Positions 1 through 22,443 of a stretch of DNA of 64,000 nucleotides are shown here, one piece after another; positions within the stretch are counted from its first letter, which is position 1; every line of letters starts with the position of its first letter. Location: NCBI GenBank assembly GCA_046704885.1, contig JBJKRB010000158.1:46400-110399 (forward strand), written 5' to 3'. The notes below the pieces were generated by a model, which was given only the letters and a program-made list of their open reading frames with translations, was not told the origin of the DNA and ran no database searches. Both the position numbers and the translations under genes were made by a program. Source of the stretch: Thermoanaerobaculia bacterium (GTDB taxonomy: Bacteria; Acidobacteriota; Thermoanaerobaculia; Multivoradales; JBJKRB01).

Positions 1-124
1 TTTCAGCGAGAGCGGCCAGCATCTCCGCGCGCACGGTTTCGTTGAGCGCGTTCATCTTGTCTGGCCGGTTGACCGTGAGAATCGCTACGCGTCCTTCTCG
101 TTCCATCAGAATCGCTTCACCCAT
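1..124 (-). CDS. enoyl-CoA hydratase/isomerase family protein (N-terminal 41 aa only; rest lies beyond window start)
   Basis: Reverse-complement of 1-124 translates from ATG at 124 to MGEAILMEREGRVAILTVNRPDKMNALNETVRAEMLAALAE, a typical crotonase N-terminus. It lies directly downstream of the stop of the 165-965 gene. Not in the ORF track because it is shorter than 60 aa. Confidence 0.5.
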   Translation of the reverse strand, partial: MGEAILMEREGRVAILTVNRPDKMNALNETVRAEMLAALAE

Positions 125-164
125 GGGATCAATCTCCTTGATGTCAGTCTTGGGAGGGGGCTCT

Positions 165-965
165 TCAGCGGTGCTTCCAGTCGGGACTGCGTTTCTCGAT
201 AAAGGCCGAGAGCCCTTCCGTCATGTCTTCGGTCGCTAGCAGCTCTGTCAAATACAGTCTTTCCGCCGCATCGGTGGCGGCCGCTACGGAACGGTTGGCC
301 GCGGCCAGAACCGCGCGCTTCGCTAGCCGGGTTACGGCGGCACTGTTCGCGGTGATCTCGTCGATCCATTCGCCCAGGGCGCTCTCGAGCTCTGCCGCCG
401 GCACCACCCGGGTCACGAAACCGATGGCCTTGGCCTCTTGGGCGTCGAGCGTCTTTCCCGAGACGATGAGATCCAGGGTGGCGCCATAGCCGAGACGTTG
501 GGGGTAGACGGCGGCGGCGAAGGGTGGATAGCACCCCAGCTTGATCTCCGGTTGTCCGAACCGGGCGCGGTCCGAAGCCAGCACCCAGTCGCAGCTCGCC
601 GCGAGCTCCATGCCGCCGCCGAGGCAGGGTCCCTGGACGACGGCCAGGCTCAATGCCGGAAGAGCCATGAGTTGAAGGAGGGCGCGATGAAAGCGAGTCA
701 AGACCTCCTCCATCCTGTCGGGCGAATGGTCGTGCACGGAGACGCCGGCCGAGAAAACGCGGTCTCCCGCGCCCCGCAGCACCACGAGCTGCATCTCCGG
801 GTCTGCCGCCAGCGTATCGGTAACGCTTTCCAGCCGGCGCAGCGTGGAGAGATCGAGGATGTTGAGGGGCGGGGCGTCTACGGTGATGGTCGCGACCCGG
901 CCCTTCTTCTCCAAACGCACGGTATTCGAGGGCGGGGCGGAAGTCTCTTGCTCTTGTTCGTTCAT
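165..965 (-). CDS. enoyl-CoA hydratase/isomerase (crotonase family)
   Basis: 266 aa. Crotonase-fold oxyanion region (VVLRGAGDRVFSAGVSV ... GPCLGGGMELAASCD). C-terminal EGLSAFIEKRSPDW motif. ATGA overlap with the upstream gene. Confidence 0.85.
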   Translation of the reverse strand: MNEQEQETSAPPSNTVRLEKKGRVATITVDAPPLNILDLSTLRRLESVTDTLAADPEMQLVVLRGAGDRVFSAGVSVHDHSPDRMEEVLTRFHRALLQLMALPALSLAVVQGPCLGGGMELAASCDWVLASDRARFGQPEIKLGCYPPFAAAVYPQRLGYGATLDLIVSGKTLDAQEAKAIGFVTRVVPAAELESALGEWIDEITANSAAVTRLAKRAVLAAANRSVAAATDAAERLYLTELLATEDMTEGLSAFIEKRSPDWKHR

Positions 966-1711
966 CCTGCTCGCCTCCTGAGTTTCGTGTCGCGCATCGT
1001 TCCCGCGAGATCAGCCGCCGCTACGAAGTCGCGCCAGAGAGCCAATTCCAGTGGCCGCTCAACCAGGTTCTCGGGATGCCACTGTACGGCTCGTACCCAC
1101 CAGGGCCCGGAAGCCGGAAGAGTGATCGCCTCGATGACTTCGTCCGGGGCTTGCGCGACGGCGATCACGTCCTTGCCGAGCCGGCAGATGGCTTGATGGT
1201 GGCGGCTATTGACGGCGACTCGTTCGCTTCCCAGCCTTGCGCCGAGCGCCTCGTCGGTCGCGGTGACCGTGACGTCGTGAGCGATGCGGTCTTGCGGTTG
1301 CGGCACGTTGTGCTTGATGTCGCTGGGATGCTGGTGCGGCAGATCCTGCCACAAGGTGCCGCCGAGAAAGACGTTGATCATCTGACAGCCGCGGCAGATT
1401 CCCCAAACCGGCGTATGCCGCTCCTGGGCTCCGGTCAAGAGGCCCCATTCGAGCGCGTCGAGGGTGGGAGCGAGCTCGAGGTCGATACCCGCGATGGCCT
1501 CTTCTCCGTAGCGCCAGGGCTCGAGGTCCTCGCCGCCGCACAAGAGGAGCCCACGGGCCTGGGCGGCGAGCGCTTCTGGATCGAGGGACGGTTCGTCGTG
1601 GGGGGTAACGAGCACCAGATCGCCACTGTTCGCGCCCGCGGCCTTGAGGGCCTCGAGATAGGGCGTGGCGCGGGGACGATTCTCGCAAACGATGACGATC
1701 GAGCTTGTCAT
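962..1711 (-). CDS. class I glutamine amidotransferase-like hydrolase (peptidase C26 / gamma-glutamyl-GABA hydrolase PuuD family)
   Basis: 249 aa. GICRGCQ nucleophile-Cys motif and HHQ/WHPE histidine region typical of PuuD-like GATase1 hydrolases. ATG at 1711 with GAGG 7 nt upstream. Confidence 0.7.
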   Translation of the reverse strand: MTSSIVIVCENRPRATPYLEALKAAGANSGDLVLVTPHDEPSLDPEALAAQARGLLLCGGEDLEPWRYGEEAIAGIDLELAPTLDALEWGLLTGAQERHTPVWGICRGCQMINVFLGGTLWQDLPHQHPSDIKHNVPQPQDRIAHDVTVTATDEALGARLGSERVAVNSRHHQAICRLGKDVIAVAQAPDEVIEAITLPASGPWWVRAVQWHPENLVERPLELALWRDFVAAADLAGTMRDTKLRRRAG

Positions 1712-1725
1712 CCCGAGGAGCCTCT

Positions 1726-2943
1726 CTAGGCGGGGGATTCAGGCCGTTCGACGAGCGCCGCGAGTCCCATTCCACCGGAGACGCAGAGCGTGGCCAGTCC
1801 CCATCGTCCGCCCCTGGCTTCCAGGCCGTGGATCAGGGTGACCAGGATGCGAGCGCCGGTGCAGCCAATGGGATGACCGAGGGCGATCGCGCCACCGTCT
1901 GGATTGGTGAGCGCGCGATCGAAGGGAAGCTCCTTCAGGCAGGCGACGACTTGGCAGGCGAACGCTTCGTTGAGCTCCACCTGAGCGATCTGTTCGCTCA
2001 TGCCCGGCCACCGTTCGAGAAGGGCGCGCACGGCGGGCACGGGGCCGATACCCATGATCCTCGGTTCGACCCCGACCACTTGCCAGTCGTGGAGGTAGGC
2101 CGCCGGAGTGAGACCCAGCCGTTGCGCCGCTTCTTCGCTCGCGACGAGGATCGCGGCGGCCCCGTCGGTGATGCCGGAGGCGTTGCCGGCGGTGACCACG
2201 CCGTTCTCTCGGAAAACGGGCTTGAGCCGGCCGAGCTGCTCGAGGGTGACGTTGTCGCGCGGATGCTCGTCGCGATCCACCGTCGTCGTTCCCTTGCGGC
2301 CTGCCACCTCGACCGGCACGATTTCTCTTGCGAACCGTCCCGACTCGCGGGCCGCTTGACAGAACCGCTGGCTCTCGGCGGCATAGGTATCGGAAGCCGA
2401 GCGGTCGACTCCCGTCTCGCCGGCGAGCTCCTCGGCCGTCTCTCCCATCACCATCCCGGAGAGCGGGTCGTTGAAGCCATCGCGGTACATGCCATCGACG
2501 ATCTCGGCATGTCCGAGGCGATAGCCCCAACGCGCTCGCGGCAGCATGTAGGGAGTATTCGACATGCTCTCGGTTCCACCTGCGAGAACCACTTCCGCTT
2601 CGCCGAGAACAATGGCGCGAGCCGCTTCGAAGACCGCCTGCAGGCTCGATCCGCAGGCCTGATTCACGGTAAACGCGGGGCGCTCGACCGGGATGCCCGC
2701 CCGGTAGCCGATCTGACGGGCGGTGTTCGGACCGCCGCCGGCTTGGCGGCCGTGGCCGAAGATGGTCTGGTCGACCGCTTGGGGATCGAGGCCGGCCCGC
2801 TCGAGACAAGCAATCGCCGCGGCGCTCCCCAGATCCGCCGCTGAAAGGGTAGAGAGGCCGCCTCCGAACTTTCCGATCGGAGTGCGAACCGGAGCGATGA
2901 GGGCCAGCCGTCGGCCCCCGAGGGGTGATCTATTTTCCGACAT
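1726..2943 (-). CDS. acetyl-CoA C-acetyltransferase (thiolase II)
   Basis: Start re-set to the internal ATG (MSENRSPLGGRRLALIAPVRTPIGKFGG). The long N-terminal extension in the track is low-complexity. Thiolase signatures: NQACGSS (active Cys), GNASGITDGAAA, NEAFA, GHPIGCTGAR, C-terminal CVSGGMG. Confidence 0.9.
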   Translation of the reverse strand: MSENRSPLGGRRLALIAPVRTPIGKFGGGLSTLSAADLGSAAAIACLERAGLDPQAVDQTIFGHGRQAGGGPNTARQIGYRAGIPVERPAFTVNQACGSSLQAVFEAARAIVLGEAEVVLAGGTESMSNTPYMLPRARWGYRLGHAEIVDGMYRDGFNDPLSGMVMGETAEELAGETGVDRSASDTYAAESQRFCQAARESGRFAREIVPVEVAGRKGTTTVDRDEHPRDNVTLEQLGRLKPVFRENGVVTAGNASGITDGAAAILVASEEAAQRLGLTPAAYLHDWQVVGVEPRIMGIGPVPAVRALLERWPGMSEQIAQVELNEAFACQVVACLKELPFDRALTNPDGGAIALGHPIGCTGARILVTLIHGLEARGGRWGLATLCVSGGMGLAALVERPESPA

Positions 2944-4396
2944 AGACAGTCTTGGTCTCGGTGTAGTGGTCGAGCGCCTGGCGCCCGAGCTCGCGGCCGA
3001 AGCCGCTCTGCTTGTAGCCGCCGAAGGCGCCGGCCGAGTCGAACCAGTTGTACTGATTGATCCACACGGTGCCCGCCTGGAGGCGAGCAGCGACCCGGTG
3101 CGCTTTGCCAACGTCTCGCGTCCAGACCCCGGCGGCCAAGCCGTAGATCGAGTCGTTGGCCAAAGCTACCGCTTCGTCCGCGTCCTCGAAGGGGATGACC
3201 ACCAGCACGGGGCCGAAGATCTCTTCTTGCGCCACCCGCATCTGGTTGGAGACGCGGTCCAGGATCGTCGGGTTCATGAAGTAGCCGTGACCATCCACGT
3301 CCGCGGCTTCGCCGCCGATCGCGACCTCGGCCCCTTCCGATTTCCCGATCTCGACGTATCCCAGGACCGACTGACGTTGCTTGGCGGAGATCAGGGCTCC
3401 CATGCGGGTCTTGGGATCGAGGGGATCCGCGGGCACCAGTCGCTCGGTGCGAGCCACGAGCTTTTCCATCAGCTCGTCGTGTACGGCGCGCTCGACGAAA
3501 AGGCGCGAGCCCGCGGCGCAGACCTCTCCCTTGCCGTAGAAGATGCCGTTGTAGGCGCCCTTGACCGCGGCGTCGATGTCGGCATCGGCGAAGACGATGT
3601 TAGGGGACTTTCCCCCGAGCTCCAGGGTCACCCGCTTGATGGTTTCGGCCGCGTCGCGCATGATGCCGCGACCGACCTCGGTCGACCCGGTGAACGAAAC
3701 CTTGTTGACCAGCGGATGGCGAACCAGCGCCTCCCCGACCTCCGCCCCTCTCCCCGTGAGAACGTTGAGCACGCCGGCGGGCAGCCCCGCCTCGTGGGCG
3801 AGCTCGGCGAACTTGAGAGCGGTGAGCGAGGTGTAGCTCGCGGGTTTGTGAACCACCGTGTTGCCGCAAGCGAGGGCGGGAGCGATCTTCCAGATGGCTT
3901 GGATAAGAGGAAAGTTCCACGGTGTGATCGCCGCCACCACGCCCACCGGTTCGCGACGCGTATAAGCGTGGACGAAGGGCCCGGCGACGGGCAGCGTCTC
4001 GCCGCTGATCTTGTCGGTCCAGCCCGCGTAGTAGCGCAGGCACTCGATGACGGTGGGAAGGTCGACGTAGCGCGACTCGAAGATCGGCTTGCCGTTGTCC
4101 AGGGTCTCGACCAGAGCGAACTCGTCGATCCTCTCTTCCAGCCGGTCGGCGATTCGCCACATGATCAGGCCGCGTTCGCGCGGCGAGATCCTGCCACCCC
4201 AGTCGCCCGCGAGCGCCGCGCGCGCCGAGGCGACCGCCCGGTCGACGTCCGCGCCGGTGGCCGCGGCGATCGCTCCGAGCTCGGCTTCCGTCGCCGGGTT
4301 CTCGGTGGAAAGGGTTTCGCCGGTCTCGGCGGCCGTCCATTCCCCGTCGATGTACAGCTTTGCCGGGGGGAGATTGGGCTCGACTGCGCTCACCAC
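2930..4396 (-). CDS. NAD(P)-dependent aldehyde dehydrogenase
   Basis: The track ORF is 559 aa with an R/S-rich N-terminus. I set the start to GTG at 4396 (GGGAG RBS about 10 nt upstream, immediately after the TGA of the upstream gene), giving VVSAVEPNLPPAKLYIDGEW. ALDH motifs: ELGGKSP, FTGSTEVG, catalytic Cys in GEVCAAGSR. Confidence 0.88.
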   Translation of the reverse strand: MVSAVEPNLPPAKLYIDGEWTAAETGETLSTENPATEAELGAIAAATGADVDRAVASARAALAGDWGGRISPRERGLIMWRIADRLEERIDEFALVETLDNGKPIFESRYVDLPTVIECLRYYAGWTDKISGETLPVAGPFVHAYTRREPVGVVAAITPWNFPLIQAIWKIAPALACGNTVVHKPASYTSLTALKFAELAHEAGLPAGVLNVLTGRGAEVGEALVRHPLVNKVSFTGSTEVGRGIMRDAAETIKRVTLELGGKSPNIVFADADIDAAVKGAYNGIFYGKGEVCAAGSRLFVERAVHDELMEKLVARTERLVPADPLDPKTRMGALISAKQRQSVLGYVEIGKSEGAEVAIGGEAADVDGHGYFMNPTILDRVSNQMRVAQEEIFGPVLVVIPFEDADEAVALANDSIYGLAAGVWTRDVGKAHRVAARLQAGTVWINQYNWFDSAGAFGGYKQSGFGRELGRQALDHYTETKTVYVGK

Positions 4397-4397
4397 C

Positions 4398-5216
4398 TCA
4401 GGCTCCCTTGAACGAGGGAGTCCGCTTCTCGATGTAGGCGGTGAGGCCCTCCTTGGCGTCACCCGACTGGAAGAGCTGCTGCTGCAGCTCGCGCTCGAGG
4501 GCGAGAGCCGTCTCGAAGGGGATCTCGGCCCCGGTTTGGACCGAGCGCTTGATCCGGCCGACGGCACGCGCCGCGCGCGCCGGCGGGCAGAAGCCCTTGG
4601 CGAACGCATGGACCTGCTCGAGGAAGTCCTCCCCCTCGTAGATCTCGTTGATCACGCCGAGAGTCTGTGCCTGCTCGAAGCTCATGAGCTTGCCGGTGAC
4701 CATCATCTCGATGGCCCGGCTCTTTCCGACGAGGCGCGCTAGACGCTGGGTCCCACCGGTGCCGGGCAAGACGCCGAGACTGATCTCGGGCAATCCCACC
4801 TTTCCGGCGTCCTTCTTGGCGAGGCGCAAGTCGGCCGCCATGGCGATCTCGAGACCGCCACCAACCGTGTGACCGTTGAGCGCCGCGATCACCAGCTTGG
4901 GGGTCTGCTCGAGGCGATTGAGCGTTTCGTTGGCGTGCAGGCAGAAGTAGTACTTCCAGTTGGGGTCGGCCTTCTGCAGCATGCCGATATCGGCGCCGGC
5001 GCAGAAGAACTTCTGGCCGAGCCCGGTCAACACGAGAACGTGGACGTCGTCGTCGAAGCGCGCCTTGAGAATGGCCTCGTCGAGCTGGCGCATCATTTCG
5101 TGGGTGTAGCAGTTCGCGGGAGGGTCTGCCAGGGTGAAATAAGCGACCCCTTCCTTGACCTCGTAATGGACGAGGGTCTTCCGTTCGCTCGTATCTTGGA
5201 CTTCGGTCTGCGGCAT
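4398..5216 (-). CDS. enoyl-CoA hydratase/isomerase (crotonase family); first gene of operon
   Basis: 272 aa. FCAGADI ... GHTVGGGLEIAMAADLR. C-terminal EGLTAYIEKRTPSF. GGAGGA RBS upstream of ATG 5216. Confidence 0.85.
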   Translation of the reverse strand: MPQTEVQDTSERKTLVHYEVKEGVAYFTLADPPANCYTHEMMRQLDEAILKARFDDDVHVLVLTGLGQKFFCAGADIGMLQKADPNWKYYFCLHANETLNRLEQTPKLVIAALNGHTVGGGLEIAMAADLRLAKKDAGKVGLPEISLGVLPGTGGTQRLARLVGKSRAIEMMVTGKLMSFEQAQTLGVINEIYEGEDFLEQVHAFAKGFCPPARAARAVGRIKRSVQTGAEIPFETALALERELQQQLFQSGDAKEGLTAYIEKRTPSFKGA

Positions 5217-5372
5217 TAGCGATCCTCCAAATAACAGATTGCGGACGATTCAGCGGGATAGGAAGCCACGGTCGACCCACATCGGGGCGACGGTCACTTC
5301 GCAGGGATCCATTCTTTCACGGCGGCTGCCGGTGGTCAAAGAAGGTAGCCACGCCAAGGCGGGAAGTCGAGA

Positions 5373-7202
5373 CTAGTCCGCTTCTCGCTCGAGCGAACAA
5401 CAGTGGGGGGCCGAAGACGGCGATGTCTCGGCCTCGAGGACGCTGCCACGGGTTGGATTCGGGCGGAAGGTGGTGCAACCTTTGAGGCTGCGCTCGTAGG
5501 CGAGACGATAGAGGTTGCGGAAGCTTTCGAAGGGATAATTCTCGGGGATGTTGAGCGTCTTCGAGATCGCGCTGTCCACGAAGGGCTGAAGCGCCGCTTG
5601 CATGGCGAGGTGCTTCTCCGGTTCGATCTCGCGCGCGGTGGCGAAGATGTCGCCGGGAGGCGCTCCATTCCCGAGGTCGGCCCAACGCGCTACCGCGTCG
5701 TCCGTGACCTCGAACTGGCGAGGACCCGACACGCCGACGACTCGGCGCGTGTAGCGCCGGGCGAAGACCGGTTCGAGCCCGCTCGATACGTTGTTGGCCA
5801 GCACACTGATCGTCCCCGCCGGGGCGATCGCGGTGAGGTGGCTGTTGCGGATACCGTGCGTGGCGATCGCTTCTCGGACCGCTGCCGGGAGGGCGGCGAT
5901 GAATTCGCCTTCGAGATAGGGTTTTTGCTCGAATTCGGGAAAGGGTCCCTTCTCTTCGGCGATCTGGGTCGAGGCGAGGTAGGCGCTGTGGCAAATTGTT
6001 CGCATGGCCTGCGCCGCGATCTCTCGCCCTTCGGCGCTCGCATAACCGCGGCCGAGAAGGATCAGCGCGTCCCCGAGACCCGTGATCCCGAGTCCCACCC
6101 GCCGCGAGCGGCGGGCCCGTTGCGCCTGGTGCTCGAGCGGGAAATCCGAAGCGTCGATCACGTTGTCGAGCATGCGAACCGCGATCCTGGCGGTGGCGCG
6201 AATGCCCTCGAGGTCGAGACTTGCCGCAGGGCTGAACGGATTGCGCACGAAACGGGCGAGGTTGATCGATCCCAGGTCGCAGGCGCCGTACGGCGGCAGG
6301 GGGATCTCGCCGCATGGATTGGTCGCCGAGATCTGTTCCCGGTAGGCCAGGTTGTTGACTTCATTGATGCGATCGATGAAGAGGACGCCGGGCTCCGCAG
6401 TCTCGTAAGTCGAGCGCATCAAGCGATCCCAGAGGCGTCGCGCCGGGACCACGCGGATGACGCGGCAGGGTACCGGCTGGTCGGTTCCAGACCAACGCCG
6501 CCATAAGACCCTATCGTCGGCGGGCTGACTTCCTGCTTGCTCGCCGACGTCGGTCGAGAGCGGGAAGACAAGGGGCCACTCGTCGTCGCGTTCGATCGCC
6601 GCCATGAGCTCATCGGTCACCAGCAGCGACAGATTGAAGTTGACGAGCTCGCCGGGCGAGTGCTTGGCCGCAATGAACTCCTCGACGTCGGGATGGTCGC
6701 AGCGCAGGGTCGCCATCATGGCTCCGCGTCGCGCTCCGGTCGATAGCATGGTGGCGCACATGGCGTCCCACACCCTCATGAAGGACACCGGTCCGGAAGC
6801 CACGGTGCCGGCGCTCACGGCGGGGGCGCCGCGTGGCCGCAGGGTGGAGAAGTCGTACCCCACGCCGCCCCCTTGTTGCATCGTAAGAGCGCCTTCCTTG
6901 AGCGCCTGAAAGATGCCGTCCAGAGAGTCTTCGATCGTACCCATTACGAAGCAGTTGAAGAGGGTCACCCGGTGAGGGTTTCCGCATCCCGCGAGGATGC
7001 GGCCGCCGGGCAAGAAGCGGAAGTCGCGCAGGATGGAGAGGAACTCCTCTTCCCGCTGGGAGCGCCCGGCGGACTCCACGGCGGCCAGGGTGGTGGCCAC
7101 GCGTTGCCACGTCTCTTCGATCGAGGCTTCGCCGTCGAGCCGGTACTTGCTCTTCCAGATCTGCTCGGAGAGCTCGTTGGTGAAGGGGCCGCGGTCCGGC
7201 AC
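5373..7202 (-). CDS. nrdJ: adenosylcobalamin-dependent ribonucleoside-diphosphate/triphosphate reductase (class II RNR)
   Basis: 609 aa. ATNPCGEI active-site motif, glycine-rich GGGVGYDFS, C-terminal Cys pair (PHCCSLE). Start is GTG at 7202 with GGAGG 12-13 nt upstream. Confidence 0.88.
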   Translation of the reverse strand: MPDRGPFTNELSEQIWKSKYRLDGEASIEETWQRVATTLAAVESAGRSQREEEFLSILRDFRFLPGGRILAGCGNPHRVTLFNCFVMGTIEDSLDGIFQALKEGALTMQQGGGVGYDFSTLRPRGAPAVSAGTVASGPVSFMRVWDAMCATMLSTGARRGAMMATLRCDHPDVEEFIAAKHSPGELVNFNLSLLVTDELMAAIERDDEWPLVFPLSTDVGEQAGSQPADDRVLWRRWSGTDQPVPCRVIRVVPARRLWDRLMRSTYETAEPGVLFIDRINEVNNLAYREQISATNPCGEIPLPPYGACDLGSINLARFVRNPFSPAASLDLEGIRATARIAVRMLDNVIDASDFPLEHQAQRARRSRRVGLGITGLGDALILLGRGYASAEGREIAAQAMRTICHSAYLASTQIAEEKGPFPEFEQKPYLEGEFIAALPAAVREAIATHGIRNSHLTAIAPAGTISVLANNVSSGLEPVFARRYTRRVVGVSGPRQFEVTDDAVARWADLGNGAPPGDIFATAREIEPEKHLAMQAALQPFVDSAISKTLNIPENYPFESFRNLYRLAYERSLKGCTTFRPNPTRGSVLEAETSPSSAPHCCSLEREAD

Positions 7203-7209
7203 CGGGTGG

Positions 7210-8247
7210 TCAGCCTCCGATCTGGACGAAACTCTGTAGGTTGCCGCTGGATCCCTCGTGCAGCCGATGCTGCTCCGGTTTGACCCGCATCAGCTCGAGA
7301 ATGCGGCGACGCAGCGCCTCCTCGGGGTGATCCGTGCTCAGAAGGTGGCGCAGGGGATAGTCGCGCTCGGCGAAGAGGCAGAGCCGCGCCTCACCCCGGG
7401 CGGTGAGTCGCAGGCGGCTGCAAGTGCTGCAAAAGCTGTGAGACATGGGGCTGATGAAACCCAGCGTTCCGAGGAAGCCGGGAATCTGAAAGACCCGGGC
7501 CGGGCCGTTTCCGATCTTCTCGCTCGCCGGCATGAGACGTCCGAAGCGGGCCTCGATGCTGCTTCGCGCCGCAACCGCGGAGAGGAAGCCTCGAGCCGTC
7601 AACTCCTCGTTGGCCGGAGTCGCCATTAGCTCGATGAAGCGGACGGAAAGGGGAAGGCGGCGGGTGAGCTCCACCATCCGGTCGATGTCCGCTTCATTGA
7701 TGCCGGCCAGCAATACCATGTTGAGCTTCACGGGATCGAATCCGGCTTCGAGCGCGGCTCGAACCCCCCTCCAAACCCGCTCCATGTCGCCCCTGCGAGT
7801 CACGGCGAGGAAGGTTTCCGGATCCAGACTATCGAGGCTCACATTGACCCGTCGTATCCCTGCCGCGCGCAGTGCCGGCGCCATGCTCTCCAGAAGCATG
7901 CCGTTGGTCGAGAGGGCAAGGTCTTCGACACCCGGTATCCTCGCGACGCGGCGCGCGATCTCGAGAACGTCCTTGCGCACCAGGGGCTCGCCTCCGGTGA
8001 TCCGGAGGCGGCTGATGCCGAGGGAGACAAAGGCTCGAACCATCGTCTCGAGCTCGTCGGGAGCGAGAAATCTACGATCGCCGTAAGGAAACTCGGCGTC
8101 GGCCGGCATGCAGTACTGACAACGAAGGTTGCAGCGGTCGGTCACTGAGATCCGCAGGTAGTCGAGCCGGCGTCCGAAGGCGTCGATGAGGGCTGCGGGC
8201 TCAGTCGGCGCCGCCCGCTCCTCGGCGGCTGTGGCTACGGCGCTCAT
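7210..8247 (-). CDS. moaA: GTP 3',8-cyclase MoaA (radical SAM; molybdenum cofactor biosynthesis)
   Basis: 345 aa. CNLRCQYC radical-SAM cluster motif, C-terminal second-cluster cysteines (CSTCSRLRLTARGEARLC), GG C-terminus. Confidence 0.9.
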   Translation of the reverse strand: MSAVATAAEERAAPTEPAALIDAFGRRLDYLRISVTDRCNLRCQYCMPADAEFPYGDRRFLAPDELETMVRAFVSLGISRLRITGGEPLVRKDVLEIARRVARIPGVEDLALSTNGMLLESMAPALRAAGIRRVNVSLDSLDPETFLAVTRRGDMERVWRGVRAALEAGFDPVKLNMVLLAGINEADIDRMVELTRRLPLSVRFIELMATPANEELTARGFLSAVAARSSIEARFGRLMPASEKIGNGPARVFQIPGFLGTLGFISPMSHSFCSTCSRLRLTARGEARLCLFAERDYPLRHLLSTDHPEEALRRRILELMRVKPEQHRLHEGSSGNLQSFVQIGG

Positions 8248-8296
8248 CTGAGGGTTATTCTAGCCCGCTGGCGGACTCGTTTCCCTCGGGGCGCGC

Positions 8297-8348
8297 TTGA
8301 CCCCCCGCTCGTGGTGTCCGTACAATCCGATATTCTTCCGTACGGACA
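8297..8348 (+). promoter_or_regulatory. near-consensus sigma70 promoter (TTGACC-18nt-TACAAT) overlapped by a 9-bp perfect inverted repeat (TGTCCGTAC-N16-GTACGGACA)
   Basis: TTGACC 8297-8302, TACAAT 8321-8326. Inverted-repeat arms 8315-8323 and 8340-8348. ATG of the downstream ORF at 8352. Confidence 0.6.
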
Positions 8349-8351
8349 GTC

Positions 8352-9083
8352 ATGATCACGGGCTACAACACAGACGTCAAGCATGGTGAAGTGGTCTTTC
8401 ACGTTCAGACGGAAGACAAGGGGGAGTCCAATCCCTGGGTCGAGAGCCTGATCTACGTAGGTGGGAGGGTCGTTGCGTCGAAGCGAGCTAGTTACGCGGA
8501 ACTGCTCAAAGATAGCTCGGACACTCAGTTCATCATGGCGTTGATGGAGCGCCAGCACCGCCTGATGATCGCCGCGATCCGCAACGGTCGCCTCGACGGC
8601 AGGCTGCAGGAGCTCGGCTTGGCGCAAGCGGGGACCGGGCGGGCGGTGCAAGCCGTGGCGAGCTCCGGCTCGAGCCACGGTGCGGAGCTCGCGCCCGCGA
8701 CGAGTGGCGAAGATGGTGGTGGCGAGGAAGGCGCGGCCCCGAGCCTGGATCAGGTCATCCTCGATTACCTGACCAACGAGGCGAGTCAGGAACAGCTCGA
8801 GCTTCATCTAGATCTCGGCGCTGACCTGGCGCTGGGACAGCGGACGGAGCTCAAACTCTCGACAACGGCCAGCAAGTCGCAGCGGCCGGTCGCCGCCGCG
8901 ATGGTGATCGTCAAGATGATTTCGACGGTGCGCGAACCGGTGACGCTCGCCGAGGGTGCGACGGATGGCGACGGGCGCCTCGATTTGACCATCGAAGTTC
9001 CCGCTCTGGAGCGAGGCACGGCCGCCCTGATCATCACCGCGACGAGCGAGCTCGGCAACGCGGAGATGAAGCATCTCCTGTGA
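8352..9083 (+). CDS. conserved hypothetical protein (243 aa); no family recognised
   Basis: Long ORF in the coding-strand context immediately downstream of the strong promoter. Stop overlaps the RBS region of the ThiS/MoaD-like gene. N-terminal ITGYNTDVKHGEVVFHVQTEDKG. Acidic low-complexity middle. Beta-rich C-terminus. Confidence 0.6.
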   Translation: MITGYNTDVKHGEVVFHVQTEDKGESNPWVESLIYVGGRVVASKRASYAELLKDSSDTQFIMALMERQHRLMIAAIRNGRLDGRLQELGLAQAGTGRAVQAVASSGSSHGAELAPATSGEDGGGEEGAAPSLDQVILDYLTNEASQEQLELHLDLGADLALGQRTELKLSTTASKSQRPVAAAMVIVKMISTVREPVTLAEGATDGDGRLDLTIEVPALERGTAALIITATSELGNAEMKHLL

Positions 9084-9100
9084 AGGGAAGGAAGACGGCG

Positions 9101-9346
9101 ATGTCCGGGGATCAGGATTCAGTGGAAATTCAGCTCAACGGCGCGGCGCGGCACGTGCCTGCCGGTGTGACCGTGGCGGATCTCCTCGCGGATCTAGGGT
9201 TCGATTCCCGTACGGTGGCGATCGAACGCAACGGTTCGATCCTCGCGCGCGACCGGTTTGAAAAGGTGGATCTAGAGCCTGGCGATCGCCTCGAGATCGT
9301 GCGTTTCGTGCAGGGTGGACGCGGTTGCAGTCGCGAAGCCGATTGA
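9101..9346 (+). CDS. ThiS/MoaD-family sulfur-carrier (ubiquitin-like beta-grasp) protein with 8-residue extension after the Gly-Gly
   Basis: ATG 9101 preceded by GGAAGGAAG. 81 aa, VEIQLNG...VAIERNGSIL...GDRLEIVRFVQGG followed by RGCSREAD. Pattern matches ThiS (MQIxxNG...INQ.IV...GD.I...GG). Confidence 0.7.
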   Translation: MSGDQDSVEIQLNGAARHVPAGVTVADLLADLGFDSRTVAIERNGSILARDRFEKVDLEPGDRLEIVRFVQGGRGCSREAD

Positions 9347-9364
9347 GTATAGTTTGCGGCGCGT

Positions 9365-9440
9365 GGGCCGCTAGCTCAATTGGCAGAGCAGCAGACTCTT
9401 AATCTGCGGGTTCGGGGTTCGATTCCCTGGCGGCTCACCA
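9365..9440 (+). tRNA. tRNA-Lys (anticodon CTT)
   Basis: Hand-folded cloverleaf. Acceptor GGGCCGC/GCGGCTC. D-loop with GG. Anticodon stem GCAGA/TCTGC with loop CTCTTAA. T-arm CGGGG-TTCGATT-CCCTG. Encoded CCA. Confidence 0.85.
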
Positions 9441-9533
9441 CCTCAGGTATCCAGGAGCCACAAACACAAGAGGTTCGACGAAGCTCCTCATGAGGCTCGA
9501 TGAGGTTGAGAGTGCCGACCGAGCCGAACGACT

Positions 9534-9622
9534 CGCGAAAGTGGCGGAATTGGCATACGCGCTAGACTTAGGATCTAGTCCCGAGTGATCGGGTTGGGGG
9601 TTCGAGTCCCCCCTTTCGCACC
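9534..9622 (+). tRNA. tRNA-Leu (anticodon TAG), class II with long variable arm
   Basis: Acceptor GCGAAAG/CTTTCGC. Anticodon stem CTAGA/TCTAG with loop CTTAGGA. Long variable arm TCCCGAGTGATCGGG. T-arm GGGGG-TTCGAGT-CCCCC. Encoded CCA. Confidence 0.85.
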
Positions 9623-9672
9623 ATAGCGGCAACGCAACCATTCATCGCTTTCCGCAGCGCAACGAGGATTTC

Positions 9673-10968
9673 ATGGCAGTCATCGCTTCTCGAGAAGAAA
9701 TCGGACCGTGCCGGCAACGTTTGAAGATCGAAGTTCCCGAACCCGCAGTGAACGCGGAGAATCAGCGAATCGTCTCGGATCTGCGACGCCGTCGCCAGAT
9801 TCCTGGCTTCAGAAAGGGAAAGGTTCCCGCCGCGGTGATCGAAAAACGCTTCGCCAAGGACATTCGCGAAACGCTCATCGAGCGCCTCGTTCCCCGTTAT
9901 TGGCACCAGGCCGAGGCGGAGGGTGACCTGCACGCCCTCCTTCCGCCGACCATCGAATCGGTCGATGTCAACCCGGAGGGGATGACGTTCGTCGCCACCG
10001 TCGAGACTCGGCCCGAGATCACCCTCGGAGATCTCGACAACTTCGATCTGCCCGAGATGCCCCTCGAAGTGAGCGATGAAGAAGTGGAGAAGGCGCTGGA
10101 GGATCTGCGCCGCACCGTCTCCCCCTGGAAACAGACCGATCGTGCCGCGGCCAAGGGCGACCTGGTGACCGCCCATCTCTTCGAGATCGACGACGAGGGA
10201 GTGGAGGGCGAAGGGCAGGTCATCCAAGTCGAAGTCGGAGACGACTCGATATGGGACGAGGTCAATGAGGCTCTGACCGGAGCCAGCGCCGACCAAGAGG
10301 TCAAGTTCGAGCGCACCGAAGGAGAAGGAGCGGAAGCCAAGGTCCGTCACCTCCGGCTTCACGTGACCGCGGTCAAGGAGCGCGACCTGGCTCCTCTCGA
10401 TGACGAGTTTGCACAGAAGGTGAGCAGACTGGAGAGTCTTGAAGAGCTGAGAGTCGATTTCAAACGGCGGATCGAGCGGAGCAAGGAGGGCGAGCTTCGC
10501 CGCCGGCAAGAGCACGCCGTCCTCGATCAGCTGCGCGAGCGTCACGCCATTCCGCTACCGGGCGGCGTCGTGGATCACGAGACCGATCATCTCCTCCGGG
10601 AGTATGCTGAAACCCTGGCGCAACGCGGTGTGGATGTGGAGCACGCCGCGATCGATTGGGAGGATCTGGCGAAAGAGATGCGCCCGCAAGCCGAGCGCCG
10701 CGTGCACGCCCGCCTTCTGCTCGATGCCATCGCGGCCACTTGGGAGATCCAGATCGACGAGAACGAGTTCCAGGCGGTGCTCGCCAATATCGGAAGATCG
10801 AGCGGACGAGGCGCCGCGGAGGTGCGACAGATGCTCGATCAGGAAGGAAGGCTGGAGTCGCTTCGAACCCAGCTGCGTCGTGACAAGGTGCTCGATCGCC
10901 TTCTCGGGACGAGCGACAAGCTCGAAGCGGAGGCCAAACCAACAACGCCGGCCGAGCCAGAAGGCTGA
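9673..10968 (+). CDS. tig: trigger factor
   Basis: 431 aa. GFRKGKVP ribosome-binding signature. Position directly upstream of clpP-clpX-lon. Confidence 0.95.
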   Translation: MAVIASREEIGPCRQRLKIEVPEPAVNAENQRIVSDLRRRRQIPGFRKGKVPAAVIEKRFAKDIRETLIERLVPRYWHQAEAEGDLHALLPPTIESVDVNPEGMTFVATVETRPEITLGDLDNFDLPEMPLEVSDEEVEKALEDLRRTVSPWKQTDRAAAKGDLVTAHLFEIDDEGVEGEGQVIQVEVGDDSIWDEVNEALTGASADQEVKFERTEGEGAEAKVRHLRLHVTAVKERDLAPLDDEFAQKVSRLESLEELRVDFKRRIERSKEGELRRRQEHAVLDQLRERHAIPLPGGVVDHETDHLLREYAETLAQRGVDVEHAAIDWEDLAKEMRPQAERRVHARLLLDAIAATWEIQIDENEFQAVLANIGRSSGRGAAEVRQMLDQEGRLESLRTQLRRDKVLDRLLGTSDKLEAEAKPTTPAEPEG

Positions 10969-19266: not shown

Positions 19267-21105
19267 ATGGGAGAATCGGATGCCTCTCCGGCCGGGGTCG
19301 AGCCCAGTAGATCTCGCCGGGGAGCCCTGATCTATGTCTTCATTGCGGCCCTGGTCGGCAAGCTCGCGTTTGTGGGTTGGGCCTTGCGACCGCGAGACCT
19401 GGTGCAGACCTATCCCTTCATGTTGGGCGATTCTCAGGACTGGGTCGCTTCGGGGCTGGCTCTAGCCGGCTTCCATGTACAAGACTCGGTTCGGCCTCCA
19501 GGTCTGCCTTTGTTGCTGGCTGCCCTCGACAAGGTCGGTGCCCTCACCGCTTTCCCGATCGTTCAGCAGGTTCTTCTGGCGGCCGCTGCGTGTCTCTTGT
19601 TCTTCCTGCTTCGAAAGCGTGCCGGATTGGAGCCGGCGTTCTTCGCTGCCGCGCTGCTCCTCCTTTCTTCCCTGCCCTTCACGCTCTCGCTCCCCGTCCA
19701 CGCGGATTCGCTCAGCGGCGTCTTGTTGCTGGCGGCTGTGAGCACGTTTCTCTATGCTCGTCGCTTCCCTTATGCCTACCTCCTTGCGGGTTTGATCGGC
19801 GCCCTGGCGGCCCTCACGCAGGGAGCCGCGTTTCTAGCGGCGCCAGCAGCGGCGTTGGTGCTCTTGGTCCGGCGTCGTCAGGACCTTCGGAATGTCTGGC
19901 TATTGGCGGGCGTAGTGATCTTCGGGTCCGGCGTAGCCGCGTGGTCTGTGATCAAGCTCATCAGGTACGGCACCGCAGGTGACGTGGTGACTCGGCATTG
20001 GAGCCTGTTGGGACTCCACCCGCAGAACCTGATTTTCTACGCTGCGGCCCTCCTTGCCATTCTGGGGCTTCCGGGCTTGCTCGTTGGACTCAAGGGGGCC
20101 GTCGCGATGAGCCGGCGCCGCGGCGAAGATGATCTGCTCGTGCTGGGCACAGTTGTGATGGTCCTTGGTTTTCTTGCGCTCGTGTACGGTTGGACGGCTG
20201 AACGCTTTCTTCTCGTAGTTCTTCCCCTTCTCGCTTGGGTCGTGGCGATGGGGCTAGCCACTCTTGGACGCAGGTCGCAAACGCTCTTCGGCGTCCTCAT
20301 CCTCGTGTTTGCCTTCCTGCCTCTCCCGGTTGCCAGCCCGCCCGTTTGGAGACTGTGGCCGTTTCCCAGCATTACGATTCAAGGGTTCGGGCGAGTGGTC
20401 CCCGCCGAGGGCCTGAGACAGGAGTGGATGCGGGGCCCTTGGGAGAGCATCTACCGAACGGCGGCGAATGAGCGGAGACATCCGGGAATCGATCGAGCGC
20501 TCTTCGCCGGCGCACCTTCCCGGGGCGTTTTGCTTTTCGCCCGAGGCGCCTACTCGAGGCCGAGCTATTTGGAGAGCAAGAGACTGGGCAATATTCTTCG
20601 GCGGCGGTTCACACCGGTACCGGCTGGGCTCTATCCCCTCGGGTGGTGGGGCTGGAGCTGGTCCCGTCGCCTTTCGCCCGTTGGTAGGTGGTGCGTCTTG
20701 GAACTCGATCTCCCTGCGCTGCCGGCGATTCTCGCACTTACCGAAGGCGGGGTATGCAATCACTCTGGATCGCCGAGAGTGCCGCCCGGGAGCTACGGTC
20801 GGTGGATCGCCGAATTCAGGGAGATTGCGAAGGAGGTGGGGCCTGGCGATCCCTTCATCGCTGTCGTTGGTTCGGAGCGAAGCGACTGGGTACGTCTCGC
20901 GCCACTGGCTCTCGAAAGCGCGAACTTGGTCGTTGTCGCCCCCGCCCGCCTACCAAAGTCACTCAACGTGGAAGGAAAGGAGGCGTCTTTCGGTGACTTC
21001 GCTCTAGCTCGCGGTGAAGCGGTGGGCCGCCCCGTCTGGGTCCTGCGGCGGAAGAGTGGGGCGCGGCCCGCTGATTATCAGAGATCAATTCACGACGAAA
21101 GGTAG
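19267..21105 (+). CDS. polytopic membrane protein, GT-C-like glycosyltransferase candidate (ArnT/PMT/arabinofuranosyltransferase-like) with C-terminal soluble domain
   Basis: 612 aa. About 11 predicted TM helices in the first ~350 aa. Acidic first-loop motif GDSQDW after TM1. Roughly 260-aa hydrophilic C-terminal domain. 9 nt upstream of the DprE1 homolog. Confidence 0.55.
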   Translation: MGESDASPAGVEPSRSRRGALIYVFIAALVGKLAFVGWALRPRDLVQTYPFMLGDSQDWVASGLALAGFHVQDSVRPPGLPLLLAALDKVGALTAFPIVQQVLLAAAACLLFFLLRKRAGLEPAFFAAALLLLSSLPFTLSLPVHADSLSGVLLLAAVSTFLYARRFPYAYLLAGLIGALAALTQGAAFLAAPAAALVLLVRRRQDLRNVWLLAGVVIFGSGVAAWSVIKLIRYGTAGDVVTRHWSLLGLHPQNLIFYAAALLAILGLPGLLVGLKGAVAMSRRRGEDDLLVLGTVVMVLGFLALVYGWTAERFLLVVLPLLAWVVAMGLATLGRRSQTLFGVLILVFAFLPLPVASPPVWRLWPFPSITIQGFGRVVPAEGLRQEWMRGPWESIYRTAANERRHPGIDRALFAGAPSRGVLLFARGAYSRPSYLESKRLGNILRRRFTPVPAGLYPLGWWGWSWSRRLSPVGRWCVLELDLPALPAILALTEGGVCNHSGSPRVPPGSYGRWIAEFREIAKEVGPGDPFIAVVGSERSDWVRLAPLALESANLVVVAPARLPKSLNVEGKEASFGDFALARGEAVGRPVWVLRRKSGARPADYQRSIHDER

Positions 21106-21114
21106 ACTCTGCGC

Positions 21115-22443
21115 ATGCGGCGTGACTCGGAGCAGCTCTCAGGGTGGGGAGGGATCTCGGTTCCCGGAAGGGAGATCCTTTCCGAGGATCTCTCGAGCGC
21201 CGCCGCCGGACAGCCGCTGACGCGTGGGCTCGGGCGAGCTTACGGCGACGCCGCGCTTCCGCCGCCGAAGGTGGGAAGCGTGGCGGGCTCGAGGCTGGCC
21301 GACCGCATTCTGGCTCTGGATCCAGAGAGCGGAGCCCTGCGCGCCGAGGCCGGACTCTCACTGCGGGAGATGGTCACGATGTTGCTGCCTCGCGGCTGGT
21401 TTGTCCCGGTGACGCCGGGGACCCAGTTCGTCACCCTAGGTGGGATGGTGGCGGCCGACGTGCACGGCAAGAATCATCACGTGAGCGGAACGATCGGGCG
21501 CCACGTCAACTCCTTGACCCTGCGCCTCGCCGGCGGTGAAATCGTACGCTGCTCGCGGGAGGGGCGCTCCGACTTGTTTCGGGCCACCCTGGGCGGCATG
21601 GGATTGACCGGCCATATCCTCGAGGTCGGGCTGACCTTGGAAAAGATCGAAACTCCATGGATCTATGGCGAGAGCGAGCGCTTCGGCGATCTGTCCGAGT
21701 TGCTCGCGGCGCTCGAGGCTGCGAGCGGCGAGTGGCCTTTCACCGCCGTTTGGGCGGATCTCATGGCGCCTGCCAGACGTCTGGGCCGCGGAATCCTCTT
21801 CCGAGGGCGCTGGGCCCGCTCCGCGGAAGCGCCGGCCGCAGCGCCGCGCCCGAAGCGCGTCTTCGAGGTTCCCGTGACCGCTCCGAATTGGCTGCTTGCG
21901 TCCCCCTTGGTCCGCGGTTTCAACCTAGCGACGTATCGCAAGCACGTTCCTCGCCGTAAGTCCGGGATCATTCATCCCGAGGCCTTCTTTTATCCACTCG
22001 ATTCTGTAGGCCACTGGAATCGCTTGTACGGCAAGCGCGGCTTCACGCAGTATCAGTGCGTTCTGCCCGCGGAGGCGGGTCGAGAAGGGGCCAAGGAGTT
22101 TCTTGCCGAGCTCAAGCGCCTGGGAGGTCGCTGCTTCTTGGCTGTGATCAAAGACTGTGGTGCCGAGGGAGAAGGAGTTCTCTCGTTCCCCCGCCCGGGA
22201 ATCTCGCTGGCTCTCGATCTCCCGGTCGACCGCCACACCCAGGAGCTCGTCGATCGTCTCAACGAGCGATTGCTCCACTATGGCGGCCGCATCTATTTGG
22301 CCAAGGACGCCTTCACCCGGGAGAGCCATTTCCGGAAAATGGAGCCGCGTCTCGAACGCTTTACCGAAATTCGGCGCAAGTTCGATCCCGAGGCGCGGCT
22401 GAGGAGCGCCCTCTCTGTGCGACTCTTTGGGGACGCGGCGTGA
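21115..22443 (+). CDS. FAD-dependent oxidoreductase of the DprE1 (decaprenylphosphoryl-beta-D-ribose 2'-oxidase) family
   Basis: 442 aa. LSGWGG, RGLGRAYGD, PGTQFVTLGGMVAADVHGKNHH, FFYPLDSVGHWNRLYGKRGFTQYQCVLP and GGRIYLAKD all align with M. tuberculosis DprE1 (Rv3790) signature blocks. Confidence 0.85.
   Translation: MRRDSEQLSGWGGISVPGREILSEDLSSAAAGQPLTRGLGRAYGDAALPPPKVGSVAGSRLADRILALDPESGALRAEAGLSLREMVTMLLPRGWFVPVTPGTQFVTLGGMVAADVHGKNHHVSGTIGRHVNSLTLRLAGGEIVRCSREGRSDLFRATLGGMGLTGHILEVGLTLEKIETPWIYGESERFGDLSELLAALEAASGEWPFTAVWADLMAPARRLGRGILFRGRWARSAEAPAAAPRPKRVFEVPVTAPNWLLASPLVRGFNLATYRKHVPRRKSGIIHPEAFFYPLDSVGHWNRLYGKRGFTQYQCVLPAEAGREGAKEFLAELKRLGGRCFLAVIKDCGAEGEGVLSFPRPGISLALDLPVDRHTQELVDRLNERLLHYGGRIYLAKDAFTRESHFRKMEPRLERFTEIRRKFDPEARLRSALSVRLFGDAA

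Follow-up and report, generated by a model that had tools for sequence, protein, structure and literature searches.

A lineage-conserved operon of Thermoanaerobaculia joins a peptidase C26 hydrolase to crotonase-fold and thiolase enzymes

Among the closest known relatives of the system treated here are PuuD of E. coli and SpuA of P. aeruginosa (PDB 6vtv, 7d4r; MEROPS C26), cysteine hydrolases of gamma-glutamyl-GABA or gamma-glutamyl-polyamines whose partners are a glutamine synthetase (GS)-like ligase, an oxidase and a transaminase. Clusters of the Puu, Pau and Ipu type hold a C26 hydrolase and often an aldehyde dehydrogenase (ALDH); an ATP-dependent gamma-glutamyl ligase defines them, and they contain neither enoyl-CoA hydratase (ECH) nor thiolase genes. 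Further points of reference are the class I amidotransferases (GuaA, CarA/CarB, PabA/PabB), which combine a glutamine amidotransferase (GATase)-like domain with a second catalytic domain, either as a partner or in one chain, and the complete beta-oxidation cycle. Here we describe an operon at positions 1-5216 of a 64,000-nucleotide stretch of contig JBJKRB010000158.1 from a Thermoanaerobaculia bacterium (the whole stretch is referred to as the window) in which a C26 hydrolase stands instead beside crotonase-fold and thiolase proteins. It is neither a Puu/Pau cluster, nor a complete beta-oxidation cycle, nor a phenylacetate (Paa) or benzoyl-CoA pathway. Our reading, held tentatively and at somewhat under an even chance, is that the operon encodes a lineage-conserved, beta-oxidation-like acyl-CoA module with a coupled C26 step of gamma-glutamyl or glutamine hydrolysis, working in the catabolic direction. 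The searchable open-access literature yielded no description of a C26-ECH-thiolase operon or of a C26-crotonase fusion.

The minus strand of this region carries six co-directional, tightly packed genes that can be read directly from the sequence. The original prediction, made from the letters alone, had described just such a coupled series (ECH-ALDH-thiolase-hydrolase-ECH-ECH) with a GGAGGA ribosome-binding site before its first gene, and on both counts it was right: neighbouring genes overlap or are separated by at most 40 nt, the Pfam families agree, and the ribosome-binding site lies where listed. The features are as follows.

5216..4398, minus strand: ECH1, crotonase-fold enoyl-CoA hydratase, 272 aa, ATG start
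4396..2930, minus strand: ALDH, NAD(P)-dependent aldehyde dehydrogenase, 488 aa, GTG start
2943..1726, minus strand: thiolase II (acetyl-CoA C-acyltransferase), 405 aa
1711..962, minus strand: C26 hydrolase, a gamma-glutamyl-type cysteine hydrolase, 249 aa
965..165, minus strand: ECH2, divergent crotonase-fold protein, 266 aa
124..<1, minus strand: 5' part of ECH3, 41 codons inside the window, the rest beyond its edge
5228-5223, minus strand: GGAGGA ribosome-binding site, 6 nt before the ECH1 ATG
5339-5311, minus strand: candidate sigma-70-like promoter, TTGACC-17-AAGAAT with an upstream TG, by consensus match only, within the 156-nt leader

The ALDH gene starts 1 nt past the ECH1 stop codon, behind the ribosome-binding site AAGGGAG, and its end is overlapped by the thiolase start over 14 nt; a gap of 14 nt then leads to the C26 gene. 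The C26 stop and the ECH2 start share the tetranucleotide ATGA (ECH2 has the ribosome-binding site AGGAGG), which leaves the two split genes one small indel away from a single reading frame. ECH3 follows after 40 nt with the ribosome-binding site AAGGAG. GC content is even across the operon (0.63-0.68). No terminator-like site on the operon strand was found inside the leader, which has no Rfam match, no unusual fold (z = 0.11) and no riboswitch before ECH1. Two public contigs of the same organism, L001 (100% identical to the window over 4299 nt) and L002 (99.8% over 2100 nt), carry identical gene calls made independently and show the full ECH3 of 258 aa. The arrangement is not a chance one, since it recurs in at least 29 species-representative genomes.

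Crystal structures of GGP1 define the nucleophile and S1 pair as C100/Q104, the glutamine being the sole side chain that binds the alpha-carboxylate of glutamate and the remaining S1 contacts being main-chain; the same work states that the Cys-His-Glu triad is fully conserved in C26 and concludes that the S1 site is common to C26 enzymes and class I glutaminases (PMC12958103). The hydrolase of the window scores 149.2 bits with the Pfam profile Peptidase_C26 (PF07722, cutoff 20.5) against 31.9 with GATase (PF00117). Its triad of Cys106 (CRG), His212 and Glu214 (WHPE) is invariant in 32 aligned sequences (alignment A1), as is the S1 residue Gln110 in the pattern C106-x3-Q110; in a second alignment (A2), of the C26::crotonase fusions described below, C96-x3-Q100 is likewise invariant. 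Profile, triad and S1 glutamine thus all agree that, on sequence grounds, the protein is a member of the Peptidase C26 family. It is not PuuD: the PuuD equivalog NF008471 gives 61.6 bits against a cutoff of 266. Identity with TrpG or PabA, the anthranilate/PABA synthase components, was rejected, for besides the profile scores (149 against 32 bits) no TrpG/PabA model of NCBIfam matches at E <= 1e-5, and the weak NCBIfam matches are confined to PuuD, gamma-glutamyl-CDP-amidate hydrolase and GuaA-A.

The family to which the hydrolase belongs has thousands of members in the databases, mainly from Acidobacteriota, and automatic annotation places the protein in a "PuuD family", a label that suggests polyamine catabolism and that the comparison with relatives does not bear out. 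With PuuD and SpuA it shares the Pfam family, the fold, the Cys-His-Glu triad and the Cys-x3-Gln pattern, and the gamma-glutamyl thioester chemistry is likely to be alike, yet the similarity amounts to just 62-68 bits (SpuA 68, PuuD 62 with 6vtv). The closest solved protein in both sequence and structure is Lin1909 of Listeria innocua (3fij, 96 bits), an uncharacterised C26 protein; Firmicutes homologues, unlike the hydrolase of the window, showed no ECH or thiolase context.

Pfam supports all six family assignments, with ECH_1 scores of 184 bits for ECH1, 156 for ECH2 and 23 for the 41 codons of ECH3, and none of the six genes reaches a curated function-specific (equivalog) cutoff in the NCBIfam search. 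Catalytic residues were read against Glu144/Glu164 of rat ECH and Cys89/His348/Cys378 of the Zoogloea thiolase. Both catalytic glutamates are present in ECH1 (GGGLE, GLPE), in ECH2 (GGGME, GQPE) and in ECH3, as in the crotonase Crt, M. tuberculosis EchA8 and rat ECH. The best NCBIfam match of ECH1 is PRK07658 (218 bits, cutoff 313) and its best PDB match 2ppy (237 bits), followed by the 3-hydroxypropionyl-CoA dehydratase 5zai. ECH2 is closest to the dienoyl-CoA hydratase model TIGR03189 (cyclohexa-1,5-dienecarbonyl-CoA hydratase; 166.2 bits, cutoff 292.5) and, among PDB sequences, to EchA8 (144 bits); the segment CYPPFAAAV after its second glutamate is unusual. ECH3 is a canonical short-chain crotonase; its orthologue at locus L003, in the closest relative, reaches 285 bits with PRK05809, the model for short-chain-enoyl-CoA hydratase.

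The thiolase is the only operon gene to pass any subfamily model (TIGR01930, 437.3 bits, cutoff 240.55). It scores 285 and 138 bits on Pfam Thiolase_N and Thiolase_C, and shares with the thiolase II enzymes of the BktB/PhaA/PcaF class both that model and the Cys/His/Cys motifs (NQACGSS, GHPIGCTG, CVSGGMG); it stays below the equivalog cutoffs of PcaF/PaaJ (374.3 against 597), BktB and PhaA. The ALDH, in which the motifs of its family are likewise present, with 617 bits on Pfam Aldedh and Bacillus cereus ALDH 4qf6 as its best PDB match (500 bits), falls short of the BADH (584 against 669), StyD (582 against 800) and PuuC (494 against 850) equivalogs. Judged by these profiles and its distribution (below) it is a generic enzyme of the ALDH1/2 type, and its gene is an accessory one. 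Equivalog cutoffs led us to reject Paa, Box, Dch, PcaF and StyD/BADH identities for the operon enzymes.

A scan of species-representative genomes, in which the operon proteins were mapped by tblastn, returned 80 loci with a best C26 identity of 52%; custom gene calls in the high-GC DNA of the relatives served clustering only. Twenty-nine genomes, labelled Thermoanaerobaculia, Holophagales or Acidobacteriota, form group 1, with the order ECH1-[ALDH]-thiolase-C26-ECH2-[0-6.5 kb insert]-ECH3-[kynureninase-like]. The gap from thiolase to C26 measures 8-50 nt in 27 of the 29, and that from C26 to ECH2 lies between -19 and 71 nt in 24 of 24; genomes without ECH2 have ECH3 directly after the C26 gene. 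Identity to the window proteins is 70-84% for ECH1, 70-76% for the thiolase and 74-82% for ECH3, on a par with Obg (67-72% relative to the L003 copy). In group 1 the junctions of C26 with thiolase and with ECH2 showed no insertion, unlike the stretch from ECH2 to ECH3 and the region upstream of ECH1. The operon is lineage-conserved, and is among the best-conserved metabolic gene sets of Thermoanaerobaculia; a locus of related type is present in Thermoanaerobaculum aquaticum.

The ALDH is found at the operon position in five of the 29 group 1 genomes, and also at L048 (where the thiolase is missing and the ALDH immediately precedes the C26 gene) and at the metagenome loci L088 and L089; the scatter of these ALDH-bearing loci over the thiolase tree is most simply explained by repeated loss. 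At L088 (11597-19840) some 8 kb of unrelated genes, which encode among others a CHAT/nSTAND protein and two radical SAM proteins, of which one carries a B12-binding domain, separate ECH2 from ECH3 and its kynureninase-like neighbour. This insert divides the operon into two blocks, one running from ECH1 through ECH2, the other consisting of ECH3 and the kynureninase-like gene.

The original prediction placed a possible ligase and dehydrogenase just beyond position 1, a suggestion that leftward extension did not bear out. The seventh gene, 62 nt after ECH3 on L002 (L002:2920-3708, identical to protein P0243 over all 263 available residues), encodes a nicotinamidase-like amidase of 350 aa. P0243 belongs to a large family, 62-69% conserved, that carries the JGI name "nicotinamidase-related amidase"; it matches nothing in Pfam, NCBIfam or PDB sequences, and the folds nearest to its AlphaFold2 (AF2) model (pLDDT 83) are nicotinamidases and isochorismatase-like cysteine hydrolases, with Asp57 and Cys270 invariant. 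At L003 a gene of this type comes before those of an Amidohydro_2 protein and of a pyridoxal phosphate (PLP) enzyme of the kynureninase family, beyond which lie convergent genes for M28, a sigma-54 activator, RsfS, NadD and Obg. This region past ECH3 holds neither a CoA ligase nor a dehydrogenase. The kynureninase-family gene stands 5-70 nt after ECH3 in eight of nine relatives. Its products (L089:12412-13560, L003:5627-6799 and orthologues) score 137-143 bits against an equivalog cutoff of 246; their PLP lysine falls at the position of Lys227 in P. fluorescens kynureninase, and valine takes the place of the preceding Tyr226. The gene may not encode a true kynureninase.

The association of C26 with crotonase-fold proteins extends beyond group 1. 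Group 2 (12 genomes) has the order thiolase (57-61% identity)-C26 (39-44%)-[secreted metallo-beta-lactamase-fold protein]-ECH, the ECH forming a sister clade of the window's ECH2 in a neighbour-joining (NJ) tree. Its flanks are wholly unlike those of group 1: they include response regulator, D-amino-acid transaminase-like, QueF-like and PLP decarboxylase genes. In group 3 (five genomes) a single open reading frame (ORF) of about 505 aa fuses a C26 domain to a crotonase-fold domain.

L054:10004-11533: C26::crotonase-fold fusion ORF
L063:8193-9713: C26::crotonase-fold fusion ORF
L071:9998-11506: C26::crotonase-fold fusion ORF
L085:9971-11512: C26::crotonase-fold fusion ORF
L042:10001-11494: C26::crotonase-fold fusion ORF

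The same architecture (PF07722 plus PF00378) is present in 110 of the 120 best protein clusters listed, and those that are named belong to Thermoanaerobaculia or Acidobacteriota. AF2 models the fusion confidently as a rigid two-domain protein (pLDDT 90.9, pTM 0.90). Foldseek found no solved structure that spans both domains (TMq <= 0.46); its best match for the C26 domain is again 3fij (Lin1909). The fused crotonase domain is nearest to the PaaG and alternative oxepin-CoA hydrolase type (119-153 bits against 300).

The surroundings of the fusions differ: a lipid A acyltransferase-family gene lies immediately upstream at L071 and L085, and a divergent FabF-like ketosynthase gene lies upstream at L054 and L063. 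A relative of the L063 fusion, P0235 (536 aa), has a C26 domain that runs into the signal peptide and body of the metallo-beta-lactamase-fold protein and has no crotonase domain; as it reads through the lactamase signal peptide, we judged it a deletion or read-through product and not a functional C26-metallo-beta-lactamase fusion.

When the C26 domains are arranged in an NJ tree, group 1 forms one clade, and group 2 and the fusions fall into other subclades, interleaved with other phyla (the C26 and ECH trees carry no support values). A single clade for all ECH-associated C26 proteins is thereby rejected. Because the subclades differ, the association is either ancient with losses or has been recruited repeatedly, and both histories argue for a functional link. 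At the loci scanned, C26 homologues of Bacteroidales, Firmicutes, Gemmatimonadota and Chloroflexota had no ECH or thiolase neighbours.

The mechanism that we propose for the module is as follows. Cys106 of the C26 enzyme would form a gamma-glutamyl thioester, from which glutamate would be freed if the substrate is a gamma-glutamyl amide, or ammonia released if it is glutamine. A crotonase-fold protein, which would bind a CoA thioester, would be the functional and probably also the physical partner in this step, and the resulting enoyl- or 3-oxoacyl-CoA would then be taken to acetyl-CoA by the hydratases and the thiolase. The ALDH may provide an optional entry step, lost in many relatives, by oxidising an aldehyde precursor. 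That the C26 enzyme works with a crotonase-fold partner on CoA thioesters seems to follow from group 2, which keeps thiolase-C26...ECH2, and from group 3, which fuses C26 to a crotonase. The catabolic direction, the gamma-glutamyl or glutamine nature of the acyl group, the physical contact with the crotonase fold and the class of substrate are what we infer from this evidence.

The most likely role is that a protein-degrading organism uses the module to break down a nitrogen-bearing acid derived from amino acids. Such a role fits the kynureninase-family gene that is co-operonic in relatives, the lysine enzymes encoded elsewhere in the window, and the established convergence of lysine and tryptophan degradation on glutaryl-CoA, which proceeds through crotonyl-CoA to acetoacetyl-CoA. 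The link to amino-acid catabolism is circumstantial. The lysine enzymes are L-lysine 6-transaminase (27757-29100, minus strand; 629 bits against an equivalog cutoff of 521) and L-piperidine-6-carboxylate dehydrogenase (piperideine-6-carboxylate dehydrogenase; 23920-25476, minus strand; 776 bits against 730), which together indicate a route from lysine to 2-aminoadipate in this organism. An O-antigen-ligase-like polytopic membrane protein is encoded between them on the plus strand (25588-27540).

Several observations weigh against a catabolic module of this kind. In the operon, and within 10 kb on either side in the four Pfam-annotated relatives (L003, L007, L088 and L089), we found no dehydrogenase for acyl-CoA or 3-hydroxyacyl-CoA and neither a CoA ligase nor a CoA transferase; a low-sensitivity signature scan of the 64-kb window likewise detected none of them. 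Compared with a complete beta-oxidation cycle the operon thus has the hydratases and the thiolase and lacks both dehydrogenases, so that the module is unable to run the full cycle alone. A gamma-glutamyl ligase was equally missing from the operon, from these four neighbourhoods and from a scan of the window for the GS ATP-site signature (again of low sensitivity), which leaves the source of any gamma-glutamyl amide unexplained. The whole region from ClpX/ClpP/Tig-MoaA to Obg-L27/L21 is syntenic in group 1; gene order alone is therefore no proof of coupling, as part of it may be inherited synteny. C26 and ECH2 also diverge faster than their neighbours (43-58% identity against 70-84% for ECH1, thiolase and ECH3). 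The fused proteins, for their part, are not those most closely related to the genes of the window: their crotonase domain is without both catalytic glutamates and forms a separate, long-branched clade in the NJ tree, so that orthology with ECH2 is unsupported, and their C26 domain is 39-42% identical to that of the window and belongs to another C26 subclade, among other phyla. As the ECH-associated C26 proteins are not one clade, the fusion evidence bears indirectly on the window's own gene.

The same fusions suggest a different pairing, in which the C26 protein would be the glutaminase half of a new amidotransferase and the crotonase-fold protein its acceptor half, ammonia from glutamine being added to an enoyl- or 3-oxoacyl-CoA supplied by the thiolase. 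The product would be a 3-aminoacyl- or enaminoacyl-CoA, and the pathway would be biosynthetic or would shuttle amino groups instead of being catabolic. We consider this unlikely. In its favour, the order of the domains, GATase-like at the N-terminus and acceptor at the C-terminus, mirrors that of class I amidotransferases (110 of the 120 listed clusters, pTM 0.90), and the S1 site, which those enzymes share, suits glutamine as well as it suits gamma-glutamyl amides; no gamma-glutamyl ligase is required, the fused crotonase domain has lost the water-activating glutamates, and the thiolase gene lies immediately upstream of the C26 gene. The modelled fusion is compatible with the holoenzyme architecture of a class I amidotransferase. 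Here, however, the partner is a crotonase fold, which is not known as an acceptor domain; the characterised Peptidase_C26 members (PuuD, SpuA, GGP1) are stand-alone hydrolases, the window's ECH2 retains both glutamates, as a normal hydratase would, and no crotonase-fold aminase is known. Put more broadly, the C26 and crotonase-fold proteins might form a novel two-component CoA-thioester enzyme, present as one chain in relatives, either a glutamine-dependent amidotransferase or an amidase of gamma-glutamylated aminoacyl-CoA, in which the crotonase fold would supply CoA binding and enolate stabilisation; this too we rate as having a small chance of being correct.

The original prediction favoured a gamma-glutamylation pathway of the Puu/Pau type for polyamines or omega-amino acids, in which the ALDH would oxidise a gamma-glutamyl-aminoaldehyde, the C26 enzyme would deglutamylate the product and the skeleton would pass on through CoA esters. 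A C26 hydrolase and an ALDH do occur within one operon, PuuD, SpuA and PuuC are among the detectable homologues, and at L048 the ALDH is placed immediately before the C26 gene. Yet the scores remain far below the cutoffs (PuuD 61.6 against 266, PuuC 494 against 850), and no PuuA/GlnA-like ligase, PuuB-type oxidase (or other amine oxidase) or transaminase was found in the operon or the four relatives' neighbourhoods, nor any of the Puu enzymes so named in the window signature scan. The ALDH is dispensable in most relatives, and the constant companions of C26, crotonase-fold and thiolase proteins, are foreign to Puu and Pau pathways. We therefore regard this pathway as quite improbable. What stands of the prediction is the operon, the assignment of the PuuD-like GATase1 hydrolase to peptidase C26 and not to an anthranilate/PABA synthase, and the expectation that hydrolase, thiolase and ECH genes are kept together in relatives, as they are in the 29 group 1 genomes; the specific Puu-like pathway, and with it the ALDH (generic in type, and sporadic in its distribution) as an integral step, finds no support.

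It might also be that there is no direct link and that the C26 gene, which could encode a housekeeping glutaminase or a gamma-glutamyl peptidase, travels as a passenger in a syntenic block with central crotonase and thiolase genes. Synteny on the scale of the whole region, from ClpX/Tig/MoaA to Obg, speaks for this, as do a rate of evolution of C26 unlike that of ECH1, thiolase and ECH3 and the homologues of other phyla that stand without ECH or thiolase neighbours. Against it stand the recurrence of the association in three separate C26 subclades with different flanks, its extension to gene fusion, the overlap of the C26 stop codon with the ECH2 start, and two junctions (thiolase/C26 and C26/ECH2) at which group 1 showed no insertions; we hold this explanation to be improbable.

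Still less probable is a direct action of the C26-fold enzyme on the thioester: it would then be an acyl-CoA thioesterase or an acyltransferase, would form an acyl-Cys intermediate, and would have a glutaryl- or glutamyl-like CoA ester as its substrate. The structurally related homoserine O-succinyltransferase does use an acyl-Cys intermediate with succinyl-CoA, the gene lies amid those of CoA-ester enzymes and in relatives is fused to a CoA-binding fold, and GATase-like folds with acyl-CoA chemistry are named among the structural homologues of C26 (PMC12958103). The sequence nevertheless belongs to PF07722 and not to the homoserine O-succinyltransferase family, and the conserved Cys-x3-Gln indicates an alpha-amino-acid (glutamate) acyl group. 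No thioesterase is known among C26 members.

Least probable of all is a lower aromatic or alicyclic CoA pathway (of the phenylacetate, benzoyl-CoA or 2-aminobenzoyl-CoA type) fed by kynureninase-derived anthranilate, in which ECH-type ring hydration or hydrolysis, oxidation of a ring-opened semialdehyde by the ALDH and thiolysis would follow one another: the best equivalog match of ECH2 is a cyclohexa-1,5-dienecarbonyl-CoA hydratase, PaaG and alternative oxepin-CoA hydrolase are the best matches of the fused crotonase domain, relatives carry a kynureninase-like gene in the same operon, and the order ECH-ALDH-thiolase resembles Paa variants without PaaZ, but every equivalog is missed (Dch 166.2 against 292.5, PaaG 149.9 against 345, PaaF 173.9 against 371, oxepin_alt 135.6 against 300, PcaF/PaaJ 374.3 against 597, kynureninase 137-143 against 246) and neither the operon nor the four annotated loci showed a ring oxygenase, a ring reductase or a CoA ligase.

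Other genes of the window deserve brief mention. Between the operon and MoaA (7210-8247) lies an adenosylcobalamin-dependent ribonucleotide reductase, NrdJ (5373-7202, minus strand; 569 bits with TIGR02504, cutoff 400); positions 1-10000 yielded no cobalamin riboswitch. At L088 and L089 there is no ribonucleotide reductase between MoaA and ECH1, and across relatives MoaA is found about 0.1-7 kb upstream of ECH1. After the gene of a regulatory protein with a RomY N-terminal domain (8352-9083, plus strand; 101 bits, cutoff 50) come tRNA-Lys(CTT) at 9365-9440, tRNA-Leu(TAG) at 9535-9623 and then a Tig-ClpP-ClpX-Lon block. Further on, positions 19267-23186 (plus strand) encode a 612-aa polytopic membrane protein, a DprE1-like FAD oxidase, whose 354 bits fall short of the cutoff of 500, and a short-chain dehydrogenase. 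The layout resembles a glycan module of the decaprenyl-phosphoribose epimerase type, which would be unexpected in Acidobacteriota.

Thermoanaerobaculia, Acidobacteriota that abound in soils, sediments and groundwater, have hardly been cultured, and what is said of their carbon and nitrogen metabolism comes mostly from annotation. The unusual feature of the operon described here is the conserved pairing of a C26 hydrolase with crotonase-fold and thiolase proteins, which offers a concrete enzyme pair. Were the two-component reading true, it would add a new acceptor class to the GATases and a new reaction type to the crotonase superfamily, widespread in Thermoanaerobaculia of soil and sediment. 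If the C26 and crotonase-fold proteins act jointly on CoA esters, the chemistry of both superfamilies would be extended, and models of amino-acid and nitrogen turnover in Thermoanaerobaculia would change.

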